A stretch of DNA of 64,000 nt, from contig JANJGN010000152.1 in assembly GCA_026770705.1 (NCBI GenBank), positions 744,001-808,000 of the forward strand. Reading direction: 5' to 3'. The translations under genes and the position numbers were made by a program. Of the stretch, positions 5,036-50,400 are shown piece after piece. A model generated the notes under the pieces. The model saw nothing but the letters and a program-made list of their open reading frames with translations. It was not told where the DNA came from and searched no databases. Each line of letters starts with the position of its first letter. Position 1 is the first letter of the stretch. The stretch is from Isurus oxyrinchus (Eukaryota).

Positions 5036-5710
5036 GTCGTAATGTGAGAAACAGCAGGCACATAATGACAAACACCAGGCGTTATCTTGCTTAATTTCTG
5101 TCATTCGTTCTTTCGTTCACTTATACTCTATATTTGCACTCTTTCCTTTCGTTTTTCTTCTTTCCCTATGTCAGTCTTTATCTTTAATCTCCCACTTCCT
5201 CTGGTGCATTCTCATACATTAATTCTCTTTCTGTTTTTGCAATATGGAAAGCTTTCAACAGTTGCCTTGCATGTCACGAGTATTATAGTTTGAGAAAGTG
5301 GTGTGAGACAGTGATAGAGGGGTGAATCATCACACTCAAGCCCCGCCCAGCATAGTGGCAATCATCGGAAGAAAAGTGTTTTGCTGCGAGATAGGACCAA
5401 GTCAGTACGTTCCATCAGGAGCTCCACTTGATGTAGACGCAAAGGCCTGGTTTGTGGAGAGGGGGCACCGCAGAATTTGCAGCCAACAATTCACCCACTT
5501 GTATAATGGCATCATGCACCTTGCCAATGTTACGAATGGGAGGCATAAAACCGTGGGCTGATCTGTTTGTTTACTGAACTGCAACTAAGATGTATGTTGT
5601 AACTTAATTTTGCCTCTGGAGACGTCATTCGGAATAAGTGAGGGAGGCTTTGAATGCGTCGCAGAACTAAAGTGCACAGTTTCGGGAATCACTTTCTTTT
5701 CTGAGAGACG

Positions 5711-8132
5711 ATGCACGGGCCAGTAAAAGCCTCTTCTTTGGCATTTGCTATCCCATTCTCGCTGTTATTGGTGCCTCTGGTAAGTGCTGGATCACAGATA
5801 AGTTATTTATGATTTTTTTACAAATCCACAGAAAGTTTGTCTCGTCCCTTTCAGGGTTGGGATCATTTTTTTCTCTAATATTCAGTGCTATCAAAGTGTC
5901 AAGGTTCTCAACCAGGTTCCGATGCCTTATATGGGATTAAACTGTGTTATGGCGAATTATAGAGCATATGTTGTACTTGCATTGTGCAGCATTACAAGGT
6001 ACAATTCAATTGATTTTGTAGGAATACTGTTTACTGGATTGCTGAAAAATGAATTATAATGTGTGGCTTTGCATGAACATAAACCTGTTATATCGCTGAA
6101 CGCTTATTTTGAGGTCGTCAATTACAATCTAGTGTTTTAAGTGTTGTGTGGAATAATAGCATACCACAATGTAGTAACATATTTTCGTTCCTGTATCTTA
6201 CTACAGCATCAGAAAACGAATTAGAGTGAAATCATTATATTAGATGAATTGCAGTATAAACATAAGTTTAGTAATTACACTAATGTACTTTTCAACCTGT
6301 GAAAGAATATAATAGTTACAGTACAGTGAGTGCTTACTGGACAATCCCGACTGCTAATCTAGCCTTAGTAATTAATTATGGAAACGTTTGAAAGGTGTTA
6401 GTGGAGGTCAGAAATTGGTGGCCTATTATGTATTTTGCTTTTTGTTAGTTGGTTTTGCATATTTTGAATAATGAAATGTTTCAGTCATCCACGGAGTTTG
6501 GGTATAACCAGCAAGTTCAACGTTTATTGCTCATTTTTATTTCTCACGTGAAAGGTGGAGTTGTGCTTGTTTCTTCAGTCACTGCAGTGCGTATGGTGGG
6601 GATGCTTCACAGGAGCCTGAAAAAATACACTTAATACCGAACGCCAGGAAGAGATATTTAACCCAAAGTTTGACCAAAGACTTTGGTTGTAAGGAACGTC
6701 CAAAAGAAGGAATGAGAAAGGCAGCCGTTGAGAGAGGGAATTAAAGAGATGATGGCCTCAGCAGCTCCAGGCAGAACTGCTACTAATGGGAAGGTTAATT
6801 TCAGGGATACACGAGAGAACAGGATAGGACGTTCACTGAGATCTCAGATACTTGTAGTTGTACAGGGATTGGGAGAGGTGAGGAAACAGAGGGGTTCCAA
6901 AAATGGAAGGGATAGATTACGAAAACTGAGACATTGCCGCCTGATAGCTAATCTTTGTCAGCGAGCATAGGCTTAATGGGAATACGGGCATTGCTTTGAC
7001 TTAGGCCACCGGTAGCACATTTTTCGGATGATCTTAATTTGGATAGCGAGACCTTGGGATCGACTCAGTGACTAGAGAGCAGAATTTGTGGCGGGGGCCG
7101 ATTGAAATGCCGTCTGCATTGACAAGTTCCATGCAGCATTGGATACCGAACATTGACCAAAGGCTTTGAAACAGCTGCAGTCCGGAAATGGCAGAGGGCG
7201 GCCCGTGGGGGTACAGTAACTGATTGGACGAGAGAGTATTGGTGTTTGGATTCTGCACAGTAACATCTCTCTCTCCTGATCTCTCACAGCCAACCTGTTG
7301 GGGATCGTACCTGGTGGCGGTAGCAGTGAGTGACCTCCTGGTCATCATCACTGCCGCCATCCTCAGCCGGATCTGCCGCATCTACTTTCAGGATAGTGTC
7401 CTGTCCACCACTCCCGCATGCACACTCAGCAATCTGCTGGTCTATGTCACCCAGGATGGCTCAGCCTGGCTGACTGTGGCCTTCACCATCAACTGTTTCA
7501 TGGCCATCTGCTGTCAGACCCTGAAGGCCAGATACTGCACCGAGAAAACAGTGTTGCCGGTTATAGCACTGGTCAGTGCCCTGAGCTGCGTGAGGAACAT
7601 CCCATACTAGTTCAGCTACCAGCCCTTGTACATCCCGGACGGGGTGCCCTGGTTCTGCGCCCTCTAGTCCACCTATTATTCTTTGCCCATCTGGCAGGCC
7701 TATGACTGGCTGAACCATCTTAACTCCTTTCCTCCCATTCCTCCTCATTCTGCTGCTCTACGGCCTGACTGGGCACATCTTAGCGGCCAGCAGAGCCCGC
7801 AAAGGACTCCTGGGCATCAAGTGTCATAGAGACACGTCTTCACCAACCGCAAGAGGTCCATTGTCCTGCTTTTTGCCATCTCGCTCAGCTTCTTCCTCCT
7901 GTGGGCCATCTATCTCTTACATTTCCTCTACGTTCGGATCACAGGTGAGCGCTACATCACCAGCCTGGATTTCAATGATCCGCGGTACATCCTTCAGGAG
8001 ACAACCGATATGCTCCAGTTAGTGGCCCAGAGCAAGTTCTGGGAAGAGCTGAAGAAGGTGCTGATGTGTCCTTTCACCAAGGCCACTGGTTGTTTCAAAC
8101 AGTTGAAACACTTTAAAACATCCTCATACTAA
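5711..8132 (+). pseudogene. GPR139-like class A GPCR pseudogene (2 exons)
   Basis: Exon 1 5711-5779 is 69 nt, versus 70 nt in the intact paralog (frameshift). Exon 2 starts at 7290 with deletions and stops (e.g. 7608-7610) and keeps YLVAVAVSDLLV, WLTVAFT, LKARYCTEK and NRKRSIVLLFAIS motifs. Confidence 0.9.
6640..7250 (-). mobile_element. Old L2-like LINE fragment in the GPCR pseudogene intron
   Basis: Degenerate; same position and antisense orientation as 45800-46440 in the paralog. Confidence 0.5.
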
Positions 8133-15484: not shown

Positions 15485-15986
15485 ATGTTGGGTTTTACCT
15501 ACTATTCTTTTCTCACAGCTGCAGCTCTCTTACCCGGTAAGTCCGCACGTTACACAATCTTCCTATTGCAGGTATCATTGTTTTAATTCAGTTTTATTTC
15601 TATTCAGAATCCCTCACTCAACATGATAAACTGGGCTGAAGTAATAAACCTTAAAGCTCTTTATTTTTAATTGCTGCAGTTGTTAGTGGTGCAGACTCGG
15701 TCTCACAGGAACCAGATACAGCGATGCAATTTGAAGGAGACTCGGTGACCATTCATTACAGCTATTCGACCACTGCTAATACACCTTACTTACAGCTGTA
15801 CCGTCATGACCGGGGTAAGGCCCCTACATTCTTGATCTACATCCCGAAATACGGAAATATTTTCAGAGCAGAGGGCGTGGGGGCTCGATTTTCTGCATCT
15901 CTCGACACTTCCAAAAGTGAGGGGAATTTCACCATCCGTGACCTGCGGCTGTCTGACAGCGCGGTGTATTACTGCGGGCTGAGAGA
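15485..15986 (+). CDS. TCR V segment, open frame, non-canonical (no Cys23, no Trp41) (V3)
   Basis: Leader 15485-15536 (MLGFTYYSFLTAAALLP). Exon 15680-15986: ADSVSQEPD..VTIHYSYSTTANTPYLQLYRH..DSAVYYCGLR, no stops, GT-AG sites intact. Confidence 0.9.
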
Positions 15987-16025
15987 CACAGTGACAGGAA
16001 CCAGGGGAAGACACCTACAAAAACA
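15987..16025 (+). promoter_or_regulatory. 23-RSS of V3
   Basis: CACAGTG + 23 bp + ACAAAAACA. Confidence 0.95.
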
Positions 16026-16785
16026 CTGCCGCAATATTTCTAAGTGAATTGAGTAGCAGACTGTTTGGTGATATATAGGGAATGCAAGTTCTTCTCCAAG
16101 TAAAGCCAACAGACAATGTGGCCTCAAGACAACTCCCATAAACTCTGAGTAGGAGAGTCGGATAAGCATTTATTCACTCTATTAATTCAGCAGGAAAAAC
16201 CTTGTGCAGGTTTTTTGGTAACCTGGCCCGATAATGTCTGATACATAGGAAGTTTATCCTATTCATTGTCCGGGAATTTTCACCCTCTCTTCAGTGTGCC
16301 ACTAACACAGAATTACAAATTAAGATCTACTCGTTGTGTGAACACAGTAGAATGTCGATCAAATCCGACTTCATCAGAGTCAACAGGCTCAATCTAAGTT
16401 GTGATAACGAGTGAAATAACTGAAAATCTCCATCGACGTTCACACCCTGTATTTCTTTCTTTGAGAAGACCTGCATACCAGTTCATTGAAGTTCACACTA
16501 TCTCTCAGATCAATTAGAGATCAAGCTGTGTATACTCATCCATCTTTCTCTCTGATCAGCCGAATGCGACGTTAATGCCTCAGTTCTCTGTAATAAGAAC
16601 TTTCCCAATGTGGTTACCGAAATGACATCAGGCCAATCAGATCCAGTGATCTCATCTTCATCATCGTATGTTCTGCAGGATGTGACATCAGACCAGTCTC
16701 AGCCAATGCTGTCAGATTATTCTGGTTCCATACTCTGCAGGATTCTGAGACACAAAAAGTCCCTTGAATTCCGGGAGCAGCAGCA

Positions 16786-20820: not shown

Positions 20821-21255
20821 ACGCCTAACATTTTAGAGGAAGGTGACTGGTCTGAGCAGTCAGTCAGAAAGTTAATCTTTTAAGGCACTCAGGACTACCG
20901 AATTCAAGGGAGACGCCAGTGTTATTGCTGCCAATGAATGGATCTACCCAGCCGAGAGGGCCGGGGTGGGGGATGCTGGTGGGATTGGGGGTGGGGGGGG
21001 TGGGGGTAGGAAACAAACAATTGATATGGCTGGAACAAAATGTAAAATTGCCTTAATAATTGAACAGTAAGAAGGTAGAATGGAAAACATGCAGACCTGC
21101 TGGTGTTGAGATAATAACTGCAGATGAATTTGAAAGAGATCCGAGAGTCGGTTTCGAACTGGAGGGAATGCAATCGAGAATGTCTTGGATACTGGCAGTA
21201 AGGGATATCTTTTCATGATACCTTGACATTGGCAGGGTCAAAGGGTATCATATCT

Positions 21256-23652
21256 CAAGTGAGTTGTCTCAATTTCTCTGCTCCTCTCACCCATTCTAAT
21301 CTGTCCCTCTCTGAACTTACTGCATTCCGTTCTCTCAGATCCAACCCCAACATTGTCATCAAACCCGCTAACAAGGGTGGTGTTGCTGTTGTCTGGCGCA
21401 CTGACCTCCATCTCGCGGAGGCTGAGCGTCAACTCGCAAACACTTCCTCGTACCTCTCCCTGAGCCATGACCTCACCACTGAACATCAAGCCATTGTTTC
21501 CAGGACTGTCACTGACCTCATCTCCGCTAGAGATCTTCCTCCCACGGATTCCAACCTGATCGTCGCCCAACCTCGGATGGCCCGCTTCTACCTCCTACCC
21601 AAAATCCACAACCAGAACTGTCCCGGTGGACTGATCGCTTTTGCCTGCTCCTGGCCCTCAGAACTCATTTCTCATTATCTTGACTTCCTTCTCTCTCCCC
21701 TTGTCCAGTCCCTTCCCACCTACATCCGTGATTCCTCTGACATCTTACGCGACATCAACAATTTCCAGTTCCCTGGCCCCACCGCTTCTTCTTCACCATG
21801 GACGTCCAATCCCTCTACACCTCCATCCCCCACCAGGATGGTCTGAGGGCCCTTAGCTTCTTCCTCGAACAGATGCCCGAACAATCCCCATCCACCACTG
21901 CGCTCCTCCGTCTGGCTGAACTTGTTCTCACACTGAACAATTTCTCCTTTAACTCCTCTCACTTCCTCCAAATAAAAGGTGTGGCTATGGGTACCCGCAT
22001 GGGCCCCAGCTATGCCTGTCTCTTTATTGGGTTTGTGGAACATTCCTTGTTCCAGTCCTACTATGGCCCCCTTCACAACTCTTTCTCTGGTACATCGATG
22101 ATTATTTCGGTGCTGCTTCATGCTCTCGTCGGGACTTGGAAAAAATTATTAATTTTGCTTCCAATCTCCACGCCTCCATCATTTTCACATGGTCCATCTC
22201 TGACACTTCCCTTCCCTTCCTTGACCTCTCGGTCTCAATCTCTCGTGATAGACTGTCCACCAATATCCATTACAAGCCTAACGACTCCCACAGCTACCTC
22301 GACTACAGCTCCTCACACCCCGCTTCCTGTAAGGAATACACCCCATTCTCTCAGTTCCTTCGCCTCCGTCGCATTTGTTCTGATGATGCTACCTTCAAAA
22401 ACAGTTCCTCTGAAATGTCCTCCTTCTTCCTTAACTGAGATTTTCCACCCATGGTCGTTGACAAGGCCCTCAACCATGTCTGGCCCATCTCCCGCGCATC
22501 CGCCCTCACGCCTTCTCCTCCCTGCCAGAAACATGATAGGGTCCTCCTTTATCCTCACTTATCACCCCATCAGTCTCTGCATTCAAGGGATCATCCTCCG
22601 CCATTTCCGCCAACTCCAGCATGATTCCACCACCAAACACATCTTCCCTTCACACGCCCCGGCGGCATTCCATAGGGATCGTTCCTTCCGCACACCCTGG
22701 CCCACTCCTCCATCACCTCCTACTCCTCAGCCCACACCTATGGCACCTCCCCATGCCCATGCAAAAGATGCAACACTTGCCGCTTCACATCCTCTCTCCT
22801 CACCGTCCTAGGACCCAAACACTCACTTCAAGTGAAGCAGCATTTCACTTGCATTCCCCCAAATTAGTCTACTGCATTCGTTGCTCCCAATGTGGTCTCC
22901 TTTACATTGGAGAGACCAAACATAAACTGGGCGACCGCTTTGCAGAACACCTGTGGTCTGTCCGCAAGAATGACCCAAACCTCCCTGTCGCTTGCCATTT
23001 TAACACTCCACCCTGCTCCCTTGTTCACAAGTCTGTCCTTGGCTTGCTGCATTGTTCCAGTGAAGCCTAACGCAAACTGGAGGAATAGCACCTCATCTTT
23101 GACTAGGCACTTTACAGCCTTCCGGACTGAATATTGAATTCAGCAACTTTAGATCTTGACCTCCCTCCTCCAACCCCAGCCCCTTTCTGTTTCTTCCCCC
23201 TTCTTTTTGTTTTTCCAATAATTTATATTGATTTTTCTTTTCCCACCCATTTCCATTATTTTTAAATATTTTATGCCCTGCTACTCTTTCCACCCCACCC
23301 CCACTAGAGCTGTACCTTGAGTGCCCTACCATCCATTCTTAATTAGCACATTCGTTTACATAATATCACCACCTTCAACACCTCTGTGCTGTTTTGTTCT
23401 TTTGTCTGTGGCATCTTTTGATTATCTGCTCCTATCACTGCTTGCTTGTCCCTACAACCACACCACCACCCCCCCACCCCCACTTCTCACCCCCCCCCCC
23501 CCACCCACCTTAAACCAGCTTATATTTCACCCCTCTCCTTATATTCACCCAGTTCTGTGTAAGCGTCATGAGGACTCGAAACATCAACTTTTTTCTTCTC
23601 CGCCGATGCTGCCAGACCTGCTGAGTTTTTCCAGGTAATTCTGTTTTTGTTC
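21256..23652 (+). mobile_element. Penelope-like retroelement (RT + GIY-YIG), 5'-truncated and frameshifted
   Basis: RT motifs MDVQSLYTSIPH, GVAMGT, YIDD, LPFLD; GIY-YIG LVYCIRCSQCGLLYIGET; 14-bp TSD AGGGTATCATATCT at 21242-21255 and 23653-23666. Confidence 0.93.
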
Positions 23653-32255: not shown

Positions 32256-33296
32256 ATGCGGCTCTCCGTTCTCGCTGTGGTCTGGGTCATATTCATTGTC
32301 GGTAAGAAGTTTAAAATTTGAAAAAGGGGCTTAATTTCTGGGAGAATCAATTTAAAAAGCGGAAAATTCATGTTAACCATGTTTCGGATCTTGATCGGAC
32401 CACACTTGGATTTATGGGGAAATGTTCTGGTCTTTAATCAGACGAACACAGACCACAAAAGAAAATGAAAAGAAACCCAATTACAATTATGGTACTGGAA
32501 TTCAGCAAGAACTGTACAGACTGGGGTTCTACCCTCTGGTAAAGAGAAACTGAGGCGGAACCGAATAGAGGTCTTCAAAATGATGAAGGAGTTCGACGGA
32601 AAATATAATTCCACTTGTGGAGGATTTCTAAAGTATGGGTTATAAATATCAGAGTCACGGAAAAGACTCAATAGGGGATTCATGACAATTATCTTTACTT
32701 TTTAGAATAAGGAATTCAATGCTACAAGGAGCAGTTGAGACAAAGACTCTAGTTTTAATGAAGGGAAACGAGATAAGTGGAAGAGGAAGAAAAGGTTGGA
32801 AGGATTTGCTAAGAGAGTGAGGATGCTCTTCGGGGATGGAAACATGGAGATGGACCATTTAGGCCGAATGAACTGTTGTATGCTCGAAATTACATTTAAT
32901 TTATGTAACACTGGCTGTGAATTTTCACCCTCAGTTCTGTTCCGTGAAAGTTTTAATCGCTGATTTGCTCTTTCTTTAACCGTCTGTTCCAGGTCTGAGC
33001 GATGGAGATTCTGTTACTCAGCGGGAATCCTCAGTCACACAGACAGAGGAAGGAGATGTCACTTTAACCTGCACCTATACCGGCGATGCTTATTACTTAT
33101 TCTGGTACCGGCAGTACCCAGGCAGACAGCCCGAGTTTGCAGTCCGGAGGCTCCCGGGAGGCGGTTCAGAATTTAAGGCGGATTTCGCTCAGAGCCGGTT
33201 TTCTGATACAGTCCAGCAGACGGACAAGTCGTACCGATTGACAATCTCGGAGTTGCGGCTGTCTGACGCCGCGGTCTATTACTGTGCACAGAGTCT
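32256..33296 (+). CDS. Functional TCR alpha/delta-type V segment (V10)
   Basis: Leader 32256-32301 (MRLSVLAVVWVIFIV). Exon 32993-33296: DSVTQRESSVTQTEEGDVTLTCTYTGDAYYLFWYRQYPGRQPEF..DAAVYYCAQS, with C23, W41 and C104 present. Confidence 0.95.
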
Positions 33297-33335
33297 CACA
33301 GTGATGGGAACGAGAGAAAGCCTCGCACAATAACT
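33297..33335 (+). promoter_or_regulatory. 23-RSS of V10
   Basis: CACAGTG + 23 bp + ACAATAACT. Confidence 0.92.
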
Positions 33336-37432: not shown

Positions 37433-37973
37433 ATGCAGTCTGACATGTTGCTGATAATACTGACGGCGCTGTTCGACAGTAAGTACTGGATTTAGTTAAT
37501 CAAGGCAGATCGGTAGATTAGTGTATAGAGATGGCGATAGTATTTAATAGAATTCACGATCAGAAATATCCATAATATGGACAGCTAGGTAGATAGGAGG
37601 TTCTGCAAACCCAAACAGCTACAAACAAATTGAGATCAACACTGTTTAACCGCTTGATATTTCATTCCTCTACCTCACAGGCGGACGATGCGCAGATCCA
37701 GTAACTCAGTCCCCGGTCGCAATAACGGCGTCGGAAGGGGGTTCGGTGCAATTAGACTGTGAATATACAGATCGGAATCTAAACTACATGCAATGGTATC
37801 GGCAGCAGACGGCACAGCCACTAACATGGATTATTACCAATGCCTTAGCACTGAAGAAAAATGAAATTTCAGGACGGTATCTGGCAGCTGCTGATATGTC
37901 TCAAAAGAACGGTTACCTCAACATAAGCGAACTGAGTGTGGCGGACGGTGCGGTGTATTATTGTGCAATGAGT
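37433..37973 (+). CDS. Functional TCR alpha/delta-type V segment (V12)
   Basis: Leader 37433-37478 (MQSDMLLIILTALFD). Exon 37681-37973: DPVTQSP..VQLDCEY..MQWYRQ..DGAVYYCAMS. Confidence 0.95.
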
Positions 37974-38012
37974 CACAGCGTTAGATCACAGCTAGAACCC
38001 CGTACAAAAACC
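37974..38012 (+). promoter_or_regulatory. 23-RSS of V12
   Basis: CACAGCG + 23 bp + ACAAAAACC. Confidence 0.93.
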
Positions 38013-38194
38013 TCAGTGAGCACTTACAGCTTCGATAAGCTTTCTTATGTGCTTTTGTGGATGGGAAGGGTTTCATCCTAGGTTCCTGGAAAGCAAAATA
38101 GACAGGTCTATTTACCGCGGTTTTATTGCTCTTTTTGTCCTTGTCTAAATCCACAGACAGTTTTGGGGGGGGGCGGTGGGGAAATGTTTGTTCG

Positions 38195-42949: not shown

Positions 42950-43370
42950 AAAAGAATCAGGTATTTCCATAGAGCCGTTCCCGGCCTCCGGGCGCCCAAA
43001 GGGCTTTACAGCCAATTAGAAACTTTCCTGTTGTAATGCAGGAAACGCGGCAGCAAAAGGTGGGCAGAGCAAGATTCCACAAAAAGTAATGAGATAAATG
43101 AGCACAAAACCGTCTTCAATGGTGTTAAAAGAAGGATAAATAATGGTCAAGCACACTGGGGAGAATGTTTTGCTGTTTTGTTAAATTTTTGAATAGAGAC
43201 AGTGAGATATTTTGCAATCCACCTGAAAGCTTAGCCAGAGGCCGTCGTTCAGCGTCTCATCCAGAAAGTCAGCACATTCAATCGCTCAGGATTCCTTCAG
43301 TGTAGACAGCTGCAGACTGTTGGCGCTGCACCATGAGTTTCATATACCTCGAATGTGGGAGCCTGAGCGG
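42950..43370 (-). mobile_element. Deu-domain (SacSINE1-like) SINE
   Basis: CCCAAAGGGCTTTACAGCCAAT..GGAAACGCGGCAGC..CGTCTCATCCAGAAAG pattern; other copies at 52270-52430 and 61970-62280. Confidence 0.7.
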
Positions 43371-43436
43371 ACGATTTATGGGTAAAGTGACAGAAAGGTC
43401 TATACACTGAGACAGTCTGGTGGAAGAGAAACACCA

Positions 43437-44559
43437 TGAAGGGGTTTTATTATTTTTCACCAGTTAAGGATATGAACTTATCTGTCTGTCCGGCGCATTT
43501 TTCGGGCAGAGACGGAGGAGAACAAGCACAGAATTCCCTGGGAGTTTCAGCGCAACCTTGGAATGTCACAGTTTGCGTATAAACAGCCCAGTGATCGGCA
43601 GTTGGGAGCATTGCAGTCATCACCAAGGCGCCTGAGTGGTAGTGGTGACTCACAAACACGGCCACGGGACCTGGGCATGGGTATAGGTGGTGGGGAAAAG
43701 AACCCCAGGTGACTGTGTGGGCCTAGCAGCAAGGAAGAGGCACCAGGCAGCAAACAGTTTGCTGTTAGATGGCTCTGTATAGATGGGGCTCAGGAGAAGT
43801 TACAGGTCCCATAGTCGTGTTTGTGAGTCACCACCAGCACGCAGGCGCCTTGGTGAATTCAAGGGAATTCAGACGCGTGCACTTAGGGTTCAGAAGCCAC
43901 GTGGACCAGAGAAAGGCAGAAGGTGGCAGTCTCCATGCTGCTGACAGGGTTCGGGCTCCGCGGAAGCTGTTAGAGTCACTGATAGCTTGGTGCAGCTGGG
44001 GAGATTGGAGATCAGTAAAATGCCTGGGCAGCGGTAGCAGTGAAGCTAGCTGTCCGTTAAAGAGCTGAAATTGTGCCAATGATTAGAGATTGATGTGTTA
44101 TGTCGGGATACAAGGTTAAACCACTGGGAGGTGAACCGCCCTGAGACAAGCCAAGTCAGAGCAATTTTCAAGGGAATTCAGACACTTGTTCTTTGAAACT
44201 GAAGAGAGGAACGCCTCGTGAGGGAGGCAGAAACTATGTGACTCACTGTGCTCACGGACTTCTAGGTGGGTTGCTGAGAAATCCGTGGGGTCTGTCTTGG
44301 TCGCTTCTGCCTTTTAATATGCAAAGTAGTGTGTTCGACCACAGTTGCTCGCTATTTAATATTTACTTCATGTTAGTTCTAAATGTTAGCGTATCAGATT
44401 GGTAATGCAAATTGTTCTACTTTGCTACCTGTACATGGTAACGTTTATTTCGCTTGTTCAAAACCGTGAAATATTGTGACTGTATTTTTTAAGCAACTGG
44501 GCTTTCAAACTTTGTCTACTTTAAACAAAACATCACTGGCCCCTAACTGCTTGATAACA
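43437..44559. mobile_element. Solo LTR (1123 bp)
   Basis: Starts TG (TGAAGGGG) and ends CA (GATAACA); 5-bp TSD CACCA at 43432-43436 and 44560-44564. Confidence 0.8.
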
Positions 44560-47274
44560 CACCATTCGAAGCAAAAGGCGAGGGTCGCAAAGGGGCAATT
44601 CAGCACCTTCTTCAGCTCATCCCTGAACTTAGTCTGGGCTACTGCGTAGATGAAGATGTTATTGCAGGAAGTGAATAACTGCAGCATGTTGGTTGTCTCT
44701 TGAAGTATGAAGTGTGGGTCATTGAAATCCAGACCAGTGAAGTAGGCGTCACCCGTAATCCGCACGAAGAGGAAATGTCCGACATAGGTGACCCACAGGA
44801 GGAGGAAGCTGAGGGAGATAGTGAAGAGCAGGACAATGGACCTCTTGCGGTTGGCGATCTCTGGGTCTCCGTGACTCTCGGCGCCCCGGAGCCTCCTGCG
44901 GGCTCTGCTGGCTGCTAAGATGTGCCTTACGGTCAGGGCATTGAGCAGCAGAATGAGGATGAAAGGGAGGAAAGGAGTCAAGATGTGATCTAGCCAGTCG
45001 TAGGCCTGCCAGGCGGGCAATAGGTAGTAGCTGGACTTAATGTCGCAGAACCAGGACACTCCATCCAGACTATACAAGGGCTGATAGGTGAAGTAGAAAG
45101 GGACGTTCTTGGCGCAGCTCAGGACACTGACCAATCCTATAACCAGCACCGCACTTTTCTCAGTGCAGTATCTGGCCTTCAGGCTCTGACAGCAGATGGC
45201 CACAAAACGGTCGAAGGTGAAGGCGACAGTCAGCCAGACTGAGCCATCCCGGGTGGCATAGACAAACACAGTGCTGACAGCGCACCCCGGGGTGGTAGCT
45301 AGGACACTATACTTAAAGTAAATGCCACCAATCCGGTTGAGGATAACGGCAGCGATCATGACAAGGAAATCAGTCACTGCTATCGCCACCAGGTAGTAGG
45401 TGATGCATCTGGAGAGTCCGCACCATCCTCGGGACAGGATTATGATCGCCACCAAGTTGGCTGCAAGAAATAGAAAGAGAGAGATGTAACCGAGTGAACT
45501 CCAGACACGAGCTACTGCCTCATCGAATCTGGTTCTAAAACTCTCTTGATCAGCCCCTTCACCACCTCCAGACTCCAATTATTCCAACTCAGTTGCTAAC
45601 TGTTCGACATCTAATGTTGGATTGAACATTTGTCAACATAAAGGACATTAAAATCAGTTCTCGCCACAAAGTCCGCCCTCTGGCCACTGATCCCATTCCC
45701 GTGGCTCACTATCTTATGAGGTTCGACGGTCTTTACAACGGTTATCTCTTGTTTGACCGTGAGATAAATTTCCAAACGCCCACATCCCCATGTCTATCAT
45801 AAACACCGACACTGCATCCTTCAACCTTTCTAATACAGCCCATAATATCGCCTGTCTCTAACCCTGCCTTAGCTTAACCGCTGTTAAAACCGTATCCAAG
45901 CCTTTCTTTTAACTAGGCTCATGACCATTGGAAGTCTTTTGAGCGGTATATAACTTCGCATCGTTATTGAACTTCAACTCATTCAAAAAAGAAATTGCTC
46001 CCCATACCCTTACCCACACCAAGTCCCGTTGATCAATCACCACTTTGCTCACTAAGCTACACTGGACCCTTGTCCGCTAAAGCCTCAATTTCAATATTCT
46101 TGTTCTGATTTTCAAACCGATCTTTAGCGTCGCCACTCCAGATCCCGGTAAAATCCTGCAGCCTTAAAACAATCTGAGATCACAGCGTACATCCAACTCT
46201 GCTCCCATGAGCATTCCTGATATTAACCGCTCCATCACTAAAATTTATTCTTTCATCTTCTGAGATAAAGAATTCCGAACCCACCCTCCGTCTCTCTTTA
46301 CTTATTTTTCAATTGTTTTTAAAAACGTACTTCGTTGATCAAACGTTTTGACATCTGATTCATATATCTTTGTGCGATTCCTTATCAAATTTGTTTGTCA
46401 AGAATTCTGTGAAACATTTACACCATTCGTCCTGCAGAGACTCAAGAAAAAAAGTGCAACTCAAATTCCTCAAATGGAAAGGAGGGATGGGCAATAAATG
46501 CTGACCCTCCCAGTGCCAGCCACGTGTCATTATTCAATAAAAAACATAATTATCCAAAATAAAGTCCAAATGCACAAAACCTAACCCCACCCAACAAAAT
46601 AGACAACTGGTTAAAAATCTTGCACCCCAATTCACCTCAGCCAAAAGTTTCCATTATTCATTCCTATGGCCACATTTACAAAAGGAATTGCCAAGTGGGA
46701 ACACACAACGTTGTAACTAGAACATGCTTCCAGGCGCCGCCTTGGGGATTAGTGGAATCATTGAATGAATTGTAACATCACGATCCATCTTGAATAATGA
46801 TTGCGCTTCAGATTAATTTTCAGTAATTTTATAAAATCAGTGCCCGGGAATGCATTTTATGGCTCTAAGATACGCTATTGTTCCATCTAATACGAAAAAC
46901 ATCAGAATGCATTTTACTACATTAGAATATTTTCTATTGTTCAACAATATAAAGTGCATAAAATGCCATGCATTATAATTAACATTTCTGCAATCTAATA
47001 GACGGTTGTTCGCTAAGTTCGCCGCATAATTTATTGAACAATGCAAATGCAAGTAATGCACTATAATACACCATAATCCAGTAAGTCCTCTATACTTACA
47101 CAGTGCCGAATATTACGAAAGTTCAGCGCGATCCAGAAAGAGAAGGGACAGCATTTTGGGGATTTACAAAAAAATAAATAATTTATTTGGGATTCTTAAC
47201 TCACCCGGGACACCAATAAAAGCGAGAACGGGGTAGTAAACGGCATAGAATGCTCCATTCTCTGGCCCGTGCAT
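44505..47274 (-). CDS. GPR139-like class A orphan GPCR, 341 aa, 2 exons
   Basis: Exon 1 47274-47205 (MHGPENGAFYAVYYPVLAFIGVP, GTGAGT donor); exon 2 45460-44505 after TTGCAG. Seven TM segments, FDRF motif, DPEIANRKRSIVLLF, SCNNIFIY. Confidence 0.92.
45800..46440 (+). mobile_element. Old L2-like LINE 3' fragment in the GPCR intron
   Basis: KLQLIQ..KLHW-type remnants. Confidence 0.6.
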
Positions 47275-48084: not shown

Positions 48085-50400
48085 AAAAACAGAATGACCT
48101 GGAAAAACTCAGCAGGTCTGGCAGCATCGGCGGAGAAGAAAAGAGTTGACATTTCGAATCCTCATGAATCTTCCACACAACTGAGTGCATATAAGGAGAG
48201 GATTGAAATATAAGCTGGTTTAAGGTGGGGCAGGGGGGTGTGTTGGGGCGGGGTGCAGGGAGATAAGTGGTGGGGTGGTGGTGTGGTTGTAGGGACAAGC
48301 AAGCAGAAATAGGAGCAGATAATCAAAAGATGTCACCGACAAAAGAACAAAAGAACACAAAGGTGTGGAAGGTAGTGATATTATCTAAACGAATGTGCTC
48401 ACTAAGAATGGATGGTAGGGCACTCAAGGTACAGCTCTAATGGGGGTGGGGTGGAAAGAGTAGCAGGGCATAAAAGATTTAAAAATAATGGAAATAGGTG
48501 GGAAAAGAAAAATCCACATAAATTATTGGAAAAAACAGAAGGAAGTGGGAAGAAACTGAAAGGAGGTGGGGATGGAAGAGGGAGTTCAAGATCTAAAGTT
48601 GTTGAATTCAATATTCAGTCCAGAAGGGTGTAAAGTGCCTCGTCGGAAGATGATGTGCTGTTCCTCCTATTTGCATTGGGCTTCACTGGAACAATGCAGC
48701 AAGCCAAGGACAGACATCTGGGCAAGAGAACAGGGTGGAGTGTTAAAATGACAAGTGACAGGGAGGTTTGGGTAATTCTTCCAGACAGACCGCAGGTGTC
48801 CTGCAAAGCGGTCGCCCAGTTTACGCTTGGTCTCTCCAATGTAGAAGAGACCACATTGGGAGTAACGAATGCAGTAGACTAAGTTGGGCGAAATGCAAGT
48901 GAAATGCTGCTTCACTTGAAAGGAATGCTTGGGCCCTTGGACGGTGAGGAGAGAGGAAGTGATTCCTCTGACACCTTACATCACATCAACAATTTCCAGT
49001 TCCCTGGCCACAACCGCTTCCTCTTCACCATGGACGTCCATTCCCTCGACACCTCATCCCCCACCAGGATGTTCTCAGGGCCCTTAGCTTCTTCCTCGAA
49101 CAGTGGCCCGAACAATCCTCATCCACAACTACTCTCCTCCGTCTGGCTGAACTTGTTCTCACACTGAACAATTTCTCCTTTAACTCCTCTCACTTCCTCC
49201 AAATAAATGGTGTGGCTATGGGTACCCGCTTGGGCCCCAGCTATGTCTGTCTCTTTATGGGGTATGTGGAACATTCCTTGTTCCAGTCCTACTCCAGCCC
49301 CGTTCCACAACTCTTTCTCCAGTACATCGATGATTACTTCGGTGCTGCTTCATGCTCTCTTCGGGACTTGGAAAAATTTATTAATTTTGCTTTCAATCTC
49401 CACCCCTCTATCATTTTCACATGGTCCATCTCTGAAAATACCCTTCCCTTCCTTGACCTCTCTGTCTCAATCTCTGGTGATATACTGTCCACCAATATCC
49501 ATTACAAGCCTACAGACTCCAAAAGCAACCTCGACTACAGCTCCTCGCACCCCACTTCCTGTAAGGACTCCATCCCATTCTCTCAGTTCCTTCGCCTCTG
49601 TCGCATCTGTTCTCATGATGTTACCTGCAAAAACAGTTCCTCTGACATGTCCTCCTTCCTCCTTAGCCGAGATTTTTCACCCACGGTCGTTGACAGGGCC
49701 CTCAACCTTGTCTGGCCTATCTCCTGCGCATCTGCCCTCATGCCTTCTCCTCCCTCCCAGAAAAATGATAGGTTTTCCCTTGTCCTCACTTATCATCCCA
49801 CCAGCCTCTGCATTCAAAGCATCATCCACCACCATTTCTGCCAACTTCAGCATGATGCCACCACCAAACACATTTCCCCTTTACACCCCCCCCCCCCACC
49901 CCCCGCCGGCGGCATTCCGTAGGAATCGTTCCCTCCGGGACACCCTTGTCCACTCCTCCATCAACCCCTACTCCTCAACCCCTACCTATGGCACCTCTCC
50001 ATGCCCACGCAAAAGATGCAACACCTGCCCCTTCACTTCCTCTCATCCCTACCATCCATTCATAATTAGCACATTCGTTTAGATAATATCACTACCTTCA
50101 ACACCTTTGTGTTCTTTTGTTCTTTTGTCTGTGACATCTTTTGATTATCTGCTCCTATCACAGCGTGCTTGTCCCTACAACCACACTGCCGCCCCCCCAA
50201 CCACTTCTCCCCCTCCCCCCCCCACCTTAAACCAGCTTATATTTCACCCCTCTGCTTATATTCACTCAGTTGTGTGGAAGGGTTATGAGGACTTGAAACA
50301 TCAACACTTTTCTTCTCCGTCGATGCTGCCAGACCTGCTGAGCTTTTCCAGGTAATTCTGTTTTTGTTTTCAATTTCCAGCATCCACAGTTTATTGTTTT
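48085..50400. mobile_element. Rearranged Penelope-like element with inverted termini
   Basis: Minus arm 48960-48085 (GIY-YIG + tail), plus arm 48959-50044 (RT), plus-strand tail 50047-50400. Confidence 0.9.

Follow-up and report, generated by a model that had tools for sequence, protein, structure and literature searches.

A solo LTR located where a GPR139-like receptor gene of the shark Isurus oxyrinchus once had its stop codon probably represents one old insertion that adds 18 predicted residues to the receptor, a tolerated and near-neutral extension that was later duplicated together with its locus. The gene lies in a window of 64,000 nucleotides (the whole stretch of DNA that was analysed; contig JANJGN010000152.1, positions 744,001 to 808,000), which contains immunoglobulin-superfamily V segments, LINE fragments and two GPCR genes; a domain search gave a V-set match in each of the three window ORFs tested.

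According to the mechanism that we propose, a full Gypsy element would have entered the gene in antisense orientation, and LTR-LTR recombination would have left the solo LTR. The element ends and a 4-bp duplication of GGTG establish TGG TGA as the empty site; there the first base of the LTR turns TGA into TGT, and the frame continues for 17 codons to a TGA already carried by the LTR family. Within this genome the insertion has a single origin, after which segmental duplication raised the number of copies to at least 15, of which 9 are now broken. The tail presumably has no selected function, and the 3' end of the mRNA was probably changed, either by use of an AATAAA in the LTR or by read-through to the host signal.

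The receptor gene, the insertion and the empty site

The receptor gene is encoded on the minus strand and its 7tm_1 domain was recognised with an E-value of 2.6e-19. It is intact, with two exons, GT/AG splice sites and a predicted protein of 341 aa (Table 1). In a protein homolog search the closest named relatives were shark “probable GPR139” proteins (a label that is an automatic database annotation), the top one being P0001 of Cetorhinus, the basking shark, at 92%. Given the intact ORF, the 7tm_1 domain and the best matches within the group, the predicted product is a class A GPCR of the elasmobranch GPR139-like group. The LTR sits at the coding end and leaves all seven TM segments untouched; in this, and in recognising a solo LTR that supplies the present C-terminus of the receptor, the first-pass annotation was right. 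An AlphaFold model of exon 2 was set aside (mean pLDDT 51, tail 41-53).

Table 1. Features of the receptor gene and of the inserted LTR (positions in the window)
Feature	Position	Strand	Basis or remark
Coding exon 1	47205..47274	-	70 nt, ATG to GT donor; missed by the first-pass annotation
Coding exon 2, GPR139-like class A GPCR	44505..45460	-	AG acceptor, 7tm_1
Proximal target-site duplication CACC	44560..44563	+	Extends over the Trp codon and bases 1-2 of the former stop codon
Added tail	44505..44561	-	Junction Cys (TG of old stop + T of LTR), 17 LTR-coded residues, TGA of the LTR
Solo LTR, 1098 bp	43462..44559	+ (own sense; antisense to receptor)	Ends from dispersed copies
AATAAA in LTR, candidate new poly(A) signal	44444..44449	-	55 nt past the new stop
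Distal target-site duplication CACC (gene strand GGTG)	43458..43461	+	Dispersed-copy ends
Host 3' UTR, earlier counted as LTR	43437..43457	-	Alignment with insert-free paralogs
Host AATAAA	43446..43451	-	Follows the old stop by 5 nt; present distance to the new stop 1.1 kb
Host 3' flank, holding the second CACCA and the 51-codon frame of the first-pass annotation	43278..43436	-	Not ancestral coding sequence

The ends of the element were placed by its dispersed copies, which occur on many large contigs with flanks unrelated to one another. They start at the base equivalent to 44559 (TGTTA on the gene strand), which confirms this boundary as it had been drawn before, and finish at TTCTTAACA, equivalent to 43462. 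The family termini are TGTTA...TAACA, i.e., TG...CA with short inverted ends. On the gene strand the LTR of the window starts with TGTTA and finishes with TTAACT where the family has TTAACA, and this altered terminal base (A to T) is present in all 15 LTR-bearing paralogs. Both ends could be placed in 21 of 41 dispersed loci (one of them the probe copy and two near-duplicates); a target duplication of 4 bp was perfect in 6 of these and within one mismatch in 13, and no flanks matched at 5 bp or at 6 bp. A LINE-type duplication of 10-14 bp was also considered and rejected, as the dispersed copies place TTCTTAAC within the element.

Keeping a single GGTG gives an empty site of TGG TGA (Trp, stop), and on the distal side CACC and the next base still preserve the old TGA (43459-43457). 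A set of 22 insert-free paralogs (L039-L060), taken from 117 matches, documents the state before the insertion: 19 of the 22 stop at exactly the TGA codon of the empty site, and the other three run on for 9-12 residues, short tails that arose separately. TGGTGA stands at the site in all six sister paralogs without the insert. Given the 4-bp duplication, the empty site is a stop, and the insertion took away no residues. The intact insert-free paralog L166 has 323 aa and the window gene 341, i.e., 323 + 18.

The ORF as it stands finishes with FEWCVIKQLGASDVLFKVDKV before its stop codon. The first base of the LTR converts the stop TGA to TGT (Cys), after which the frame reads 17 LTR codons. In this phase, 14 of 31 dispersed LTRs would likewise lengthen the protein by exactly 18 residues, and the closing TGA is therefore the element's own. 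Measured from an anchor in TM7, the tails of homologs have a median length of 30 residues (49 have exactly 30, and the longest has 64) in the 96 of 120 homologous proteins that could be anchored, the other 24 being dropped; the tail of the window gene measures 48 residues.

Copies of the locus and selection on the tail

A genome search with 43437-44559 gave at least 15 full-length matches (40 of 2732 candidates were scored). All 15 have the GPCR upstream and the same downstream flank, and because both flanks are common to all, they are duplicates of the GPR139-like locus; independent insertions are ruled out. The remaining partial matches, of 70-75% and on many contigs, represent the true dispersed family. 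The 15 LTR-bearing copies form one clade (support 100/99), the sister group of which is made up of six insert-free paralogs (98/95; midpoint root). Five of the copies are intact (341 residues), one has a 14-residue in-frame deletion, and nine are broken, the defects being frameshifts, stops, loss of the acceptor or the lack of exon 1 in the fetched stretch. In six of the nine broken copies a TAG at the Trp codon precedes the tail, so that the clade has no intact member without the long tail. Haplotypes may account for some of the copies that lie on unplaced contigs. A further seven loci retain only the distal part of the LTR and the flank, and in the three of them that were extended no receptor gene was present within about 9 kb upstream.

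Outside this genome, the tail was found in the Cetorhinus P0001 protein (16 of 18 residues), the only protein recovered by a tail-directed search (one of one candidate) and the only one with the 18-residue extension among 120 listed homologs. Contigs under a second species label span the 44559 junction (X19 records 22 and 23), and by the 31-letter rule no contig bridged the 43462 junction. An empty allele was not seen, as none of the 15 joints listed (the best 15 of 27) skips the whole LTR, in contigs that drop rare variants. Most likely, as judged from sequence comparison, the insertion is old and happened only once, and the locus was duplicated afterwards.

Selection on the tail was addressed by a rate test on non-CpG columns of five paralogs. 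The tail showed 12 events in 51 columns and the rest of the LTR 230 in 865 (Fisher p = 0.74), so that no purifying selection on the TE-derived tail was detected, by a test of low power (51 columns; comparison paralogs that were pseudogenes for part of their history). The rates of the tail and of the host UTR were alike (p = 1.0). Compared with nine older paralogs, the tail has 1-6 nonsynonymous and 0-1 synonymous differences, and the dN/dS of the receptor body is 0.37-0.53.

The 3' end of the transcript, with its 3' UTR, plausibly changed as well. The AATAAA of the LTR is retained in 8 of the 15 LTR-bearing paralogs, namely in all six intact or near-intact copies and in two of the nine broken ones (six of the nine are near-copies of each other, and their loss of the signal thus counts as one event). 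The host AATAAA is retained in 15 of 15. Among runs recorded as RNA, none was listed as containing the locus; one presumed-RNA run (X20) gave seven short pieces at the locus and none across a junction.

Three observations sit less easily with a neutral extension: the tail is without any difference in the six intact or near-intact copies, it was kept in the basking shark, and the same six copies kept the AATAAA of the LTR. They are also what could be said for co-option, an unlikely reading in which the same insertion and 18-residue extension acquired a use, the tail, or a 3' UTR, a poly(A) signal or an antisense promoter supplied by the LTR, having altered trafficking, signalling or expression, with selection maintaining it; the features proposed are the new Cys, one Ser and the new C-terminal end. 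The receptor body, moreover, has been under purifying selection since the insertion (the dN/dS range above). However, the six copies are recent duplicates (dS 0.009-0.019), in which identity of the tail is expected, and the rate test gave no excess conservation of the tail. With 89% identity to Cetorhinus, the tail does not exceed the body (92-93%), only a single Ser was added, and the terminal D-K-V becomes A-K-V in Cetorhinus. We take D-K-V to resemble a class III PDZ-binding end. The more specific proposition that selection has kept the new C-terminus and 3' end in one shark receptor clade among T-cell-receptor V segments since before the basking shark split is improbable. If it were true, the paralogs of 323 and 341 residues would be a natural experiment on how a GPCR with almost no tail comes under control of its trafficking or by arrestin, and a functional extension would be the more important because the receptor family is almost without a cytoplasmic tail. 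We retain the tolerated, near-neutral extension as the preferred reading.

The family of the element

Going by the sequence behind its relatives, the LTR is a predicted member of the SCAN-gag (Gmr1-like Gypsy) family. Genome matches to the 44559-type end plus an adjoining TGG numbered 33, and about 10 of the 20 that were fetched enter a shared TGG/G-rich, PBS-like stretch, with internal sequence common to several copies beyond it; the opposite LTR end gave two matches with a stricter pattern, so that the two counts cannot be compared strictly. At locus L143 an ORF (one of two ORFs scanned) that lies about 0.6 kb beyond a family LTR matched PF02023 (SCAN) with an E-value of 2.7e-07 and 30.7 bits, at a cut-off of 27. 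As the PBS-like stretch and the SCAN ORF lie downstream of the 44559-type end, the sense of the LTR is the + strand, antisense to the receptor. Paired direct LTR copies around internal sequence, 73% identical, were present at one of five extended loci (L145), at which no outer ends, polypurine tract or flanking duplication could be resolved.

In Gmr1-like Ty3/Gypsy elements the integrase precedes the reverse transcriptase in pol, and no pol ORF was identified in the five extended loci. The PBS-like stretch did not match tRNAs of the types Cys, Lys, Val and Ile (best 10-13 of 18), and a pattern search of the genome gave no match for a primer tRNA; the stretch may resemble a proline-tRNA site. 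A full-length parent with pol, a polypurine tract or a flanking duplication was likewise not found in the five extended loci, an observation that weighs against a Gypsy origin.

The effect on the receptor would have been the same if the inserted repeat, with its short inverted ends and 4-bp duplication, were a non-autonomous DNA transposon or the LTR of an endogenous retrovirus. Such an identity could appeal to the lack of a reverse transcriptase or integrase beside the copies, to the four tRNA types without a match and to the ends of L145, but it is highly unlikely, given that the inverted ends are just 5 bp long, that copies run into the shared G-rich, PBS-like stretch and internal sequence with a SCAN match above the cut-off, and that two direct copies flank the internal sequence of L145. 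The accessible part of PMC4592553 describes SCAN as a homolog of the gag capsid found in Gmr1-like Gypsy elements, and the elements treated there resemble ours in their TG...CA ends, their 4-bp duplication and, in related copies of ours, a PBS-like stretch followed by a SCAN ORF. Unlike them, the insertion studied here is a solo LTR only, with a family assigned without pol and with old copies that are about 70-80% alike.

The distal boundary and known cases

The first-pass annotation had extended the LTR to 43437, with a TG there, a CA at 44559 and CACCA at 43432-43436 and 44560-44564. These letters are present, but 43437 is not an end of the element: the dispersed copies share the 44559 end and stop at the equivalent of 43462, the second CACC lies at 43458-43461, and the duplication of the family is 4 bp, with no case of 5 bp among 21. 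The 25 letters 43437-43461 agree with the 3' flanks of dispersed copies at no more than 4-13 positions (24 copies compared); in an alignment with the insert-free paralogs L056 and L057 they fall on the stop codon and the 3' UTR. By chance the window contains 710 TG..CA pairs that have a 5-bp flank repeat (spacing 300-2000 bp), and such a pattern alone therefore proves nothing.

Cutting at the points of that annotation does give an open frame of 51 residues to 43278, with 10 Ser/Thr against one Ser in the 18 residues added. It had been taken for a lost ancestral tail, which does not hold, as the empty site is TGG TGA and 19 of 22 insert-free paralogs stop there; the frame is, on comparison with these relatives, translated 3' UTR, and it would give the receptor 81 residues from the TM7 anchor. 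No such tail occurs in the 22 insert-free paralogs or in the 96 anchored homologs. The proposed loss of phosphorylation or arrestin sites falls with it, since no Ser/Thr-rich tail was lost, and the locus does not demonstrate the loss of regulatory phosphorylation sites. The model in which an LTR of 1123 bp, with a duplication of 5 bp (CACCA), replaced a 51-residue, Ser/Thr-rich tail, and for which the letters and the open codons could be cited, is almost certainly wrong in view of the family end and duplication, the host origin of the extra 25 bp and the lack of the tail in relatives. The distal TGGTG also speaks against it, since insert-free L056 has a gap of 12 bp at that place and nothing that corresponds to it. 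An overlap of the distal frame with a SINE was not borne out, in that 22 of 23 genome matches to 43180-43400 are paralogs of the locus; the search skips very common words, and a missing SINE match is thus no disproof. The case advises caution, because chance often produces TG..CA with a 5-bp repeat, and a boundary error of 25 bp was sufficient to invent a nonexistent tail.

The insertion is a new, well-resolved case of a known class, in which an LTR lies across the coding end and the 3' UTR. In human, according to the portion of PMC2008291 available, 71 of 571 associations of LTRs with last CDS exons cover the coding end and the 3' UTR, and TE insertions into last exons are known in non-mammalian vertebrates (PMC2911107, in part). 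The human cases, as far as that portion describes them, agree with ours in that the end of the coding sequence with its stop and the first part of the 3' UTR come from the LTR, whereas theirs are ERV/MaLR and ours is Gypsy-type, in a shark, inside the stop codon, with the empty state seen in paralogs and with a predicted protein. In a literature search of titles and abstract openings we found no mention of the insertion or of receptors of this kind among TCR V segments, which does not imply absence from print; the terms “GPR”, “G protein” and “GPCR” do not occur in the main text of PMC12227049 as far as it was available.

With its before-state in sister paralogs, the locus offers a clean, datable case in which a host protein gained residues from a transposon, and the insertion is useful as a marker for the duplication history of the receptor clade and for shark phylogeny. 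The window gene resembles the expanded elasmobranch “probable GPR139”-like receptors as a two-exon class A GPCR with a short helix-8 tail and 92% identity to the Cetorhinus protein, and differs from them in its 18-residue, LTR-derived extension.

Receptor genes and their C-terminal ends

In the window, T-cell-receptor-like V segments are found with GPR139-like genes mixed in between (see the table), an arrangement that we did not find described in a literature search. Genome-wide, the search returned more than 100 matches to related receptors, and more than half of the best receptor matches lie on a single contig (C26) together with its likely satellite contigs; V cassettes and receptors seem to duplicate together. 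The second receptor gene of the window, which carries no LTR, has a C-terminal end reading ...CFKQLKHFKTSSY*. Tail length is labile in this receptor family: other members (the loci L043, L050 and L055 and the homologous proteins P0012, P0014, P0023 and P0057) have run-on extensions of their C-terminus, 9-34 residues long, that arose independently.

Features of the window discussed in this part
Feature	Position	Strand	Remarks
Second GPR139-like gene	about 5711-8132	+	frameshifts in both exons
T-cell-receptor-like V-segment ORFs	15655-16047, 32980-33333, 37650-38081		further ORFs present
GPCR genes amid V segments	5700-8132 and 44505-47274
Decayed reverse-transcriptase retrotransposon fragments (two)	21202-23070 and 48667-50082
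54-bp inverted repeat	43620-43673 and 43803-43856		89%; within the LTR

Rearranged copies of the LTR locus

The inverted repeat inside the window LTR is accompanied by an extra 40-65 bp that is present in the window copy and in two of its LTR-bearing paralogs (L149 and L150) and absent from the other 12; since the extra sequence is confined to these three, the repeat is a recent local inverted duplication. Seven further loci (L016-L022) lack the receptor gene and all of the LTR except its distal 270 bp, while the host flank is present; L163-L165 are extended versions of three of these loci. This state probably goes back to a single deletion that was then spread by duplication.

Retrotransposon sequences

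The two reverse-transcriptase fragments look Penelope/LINE-like by eye, and a Pfam search with one of them gave zero matches. Among 13 dispersed LTR copies compared (from L023-L117), most carry clusters of AATAAA/ATTAAA hexamers on the LTR antisense strand; measured from the U5 end, the clusters lie at about 75 and 110 bp. There are almost no such hexamers on the sense strand. Four loci (L027, L030, L083 and L087) represent a second LTR subfamily, which has the PBS-side 650 bp of the LTR in common with the other copies but differs at the far end. Tandem repeats with units of about 30 bp, composed of the LTR end and the adjoining G-rich, PBS-like stretch, were observed at L125, L128, L130, L132, L139, L140 and L145; at L145, which has two direct LTR copies, such units occur behind the second LTR too.
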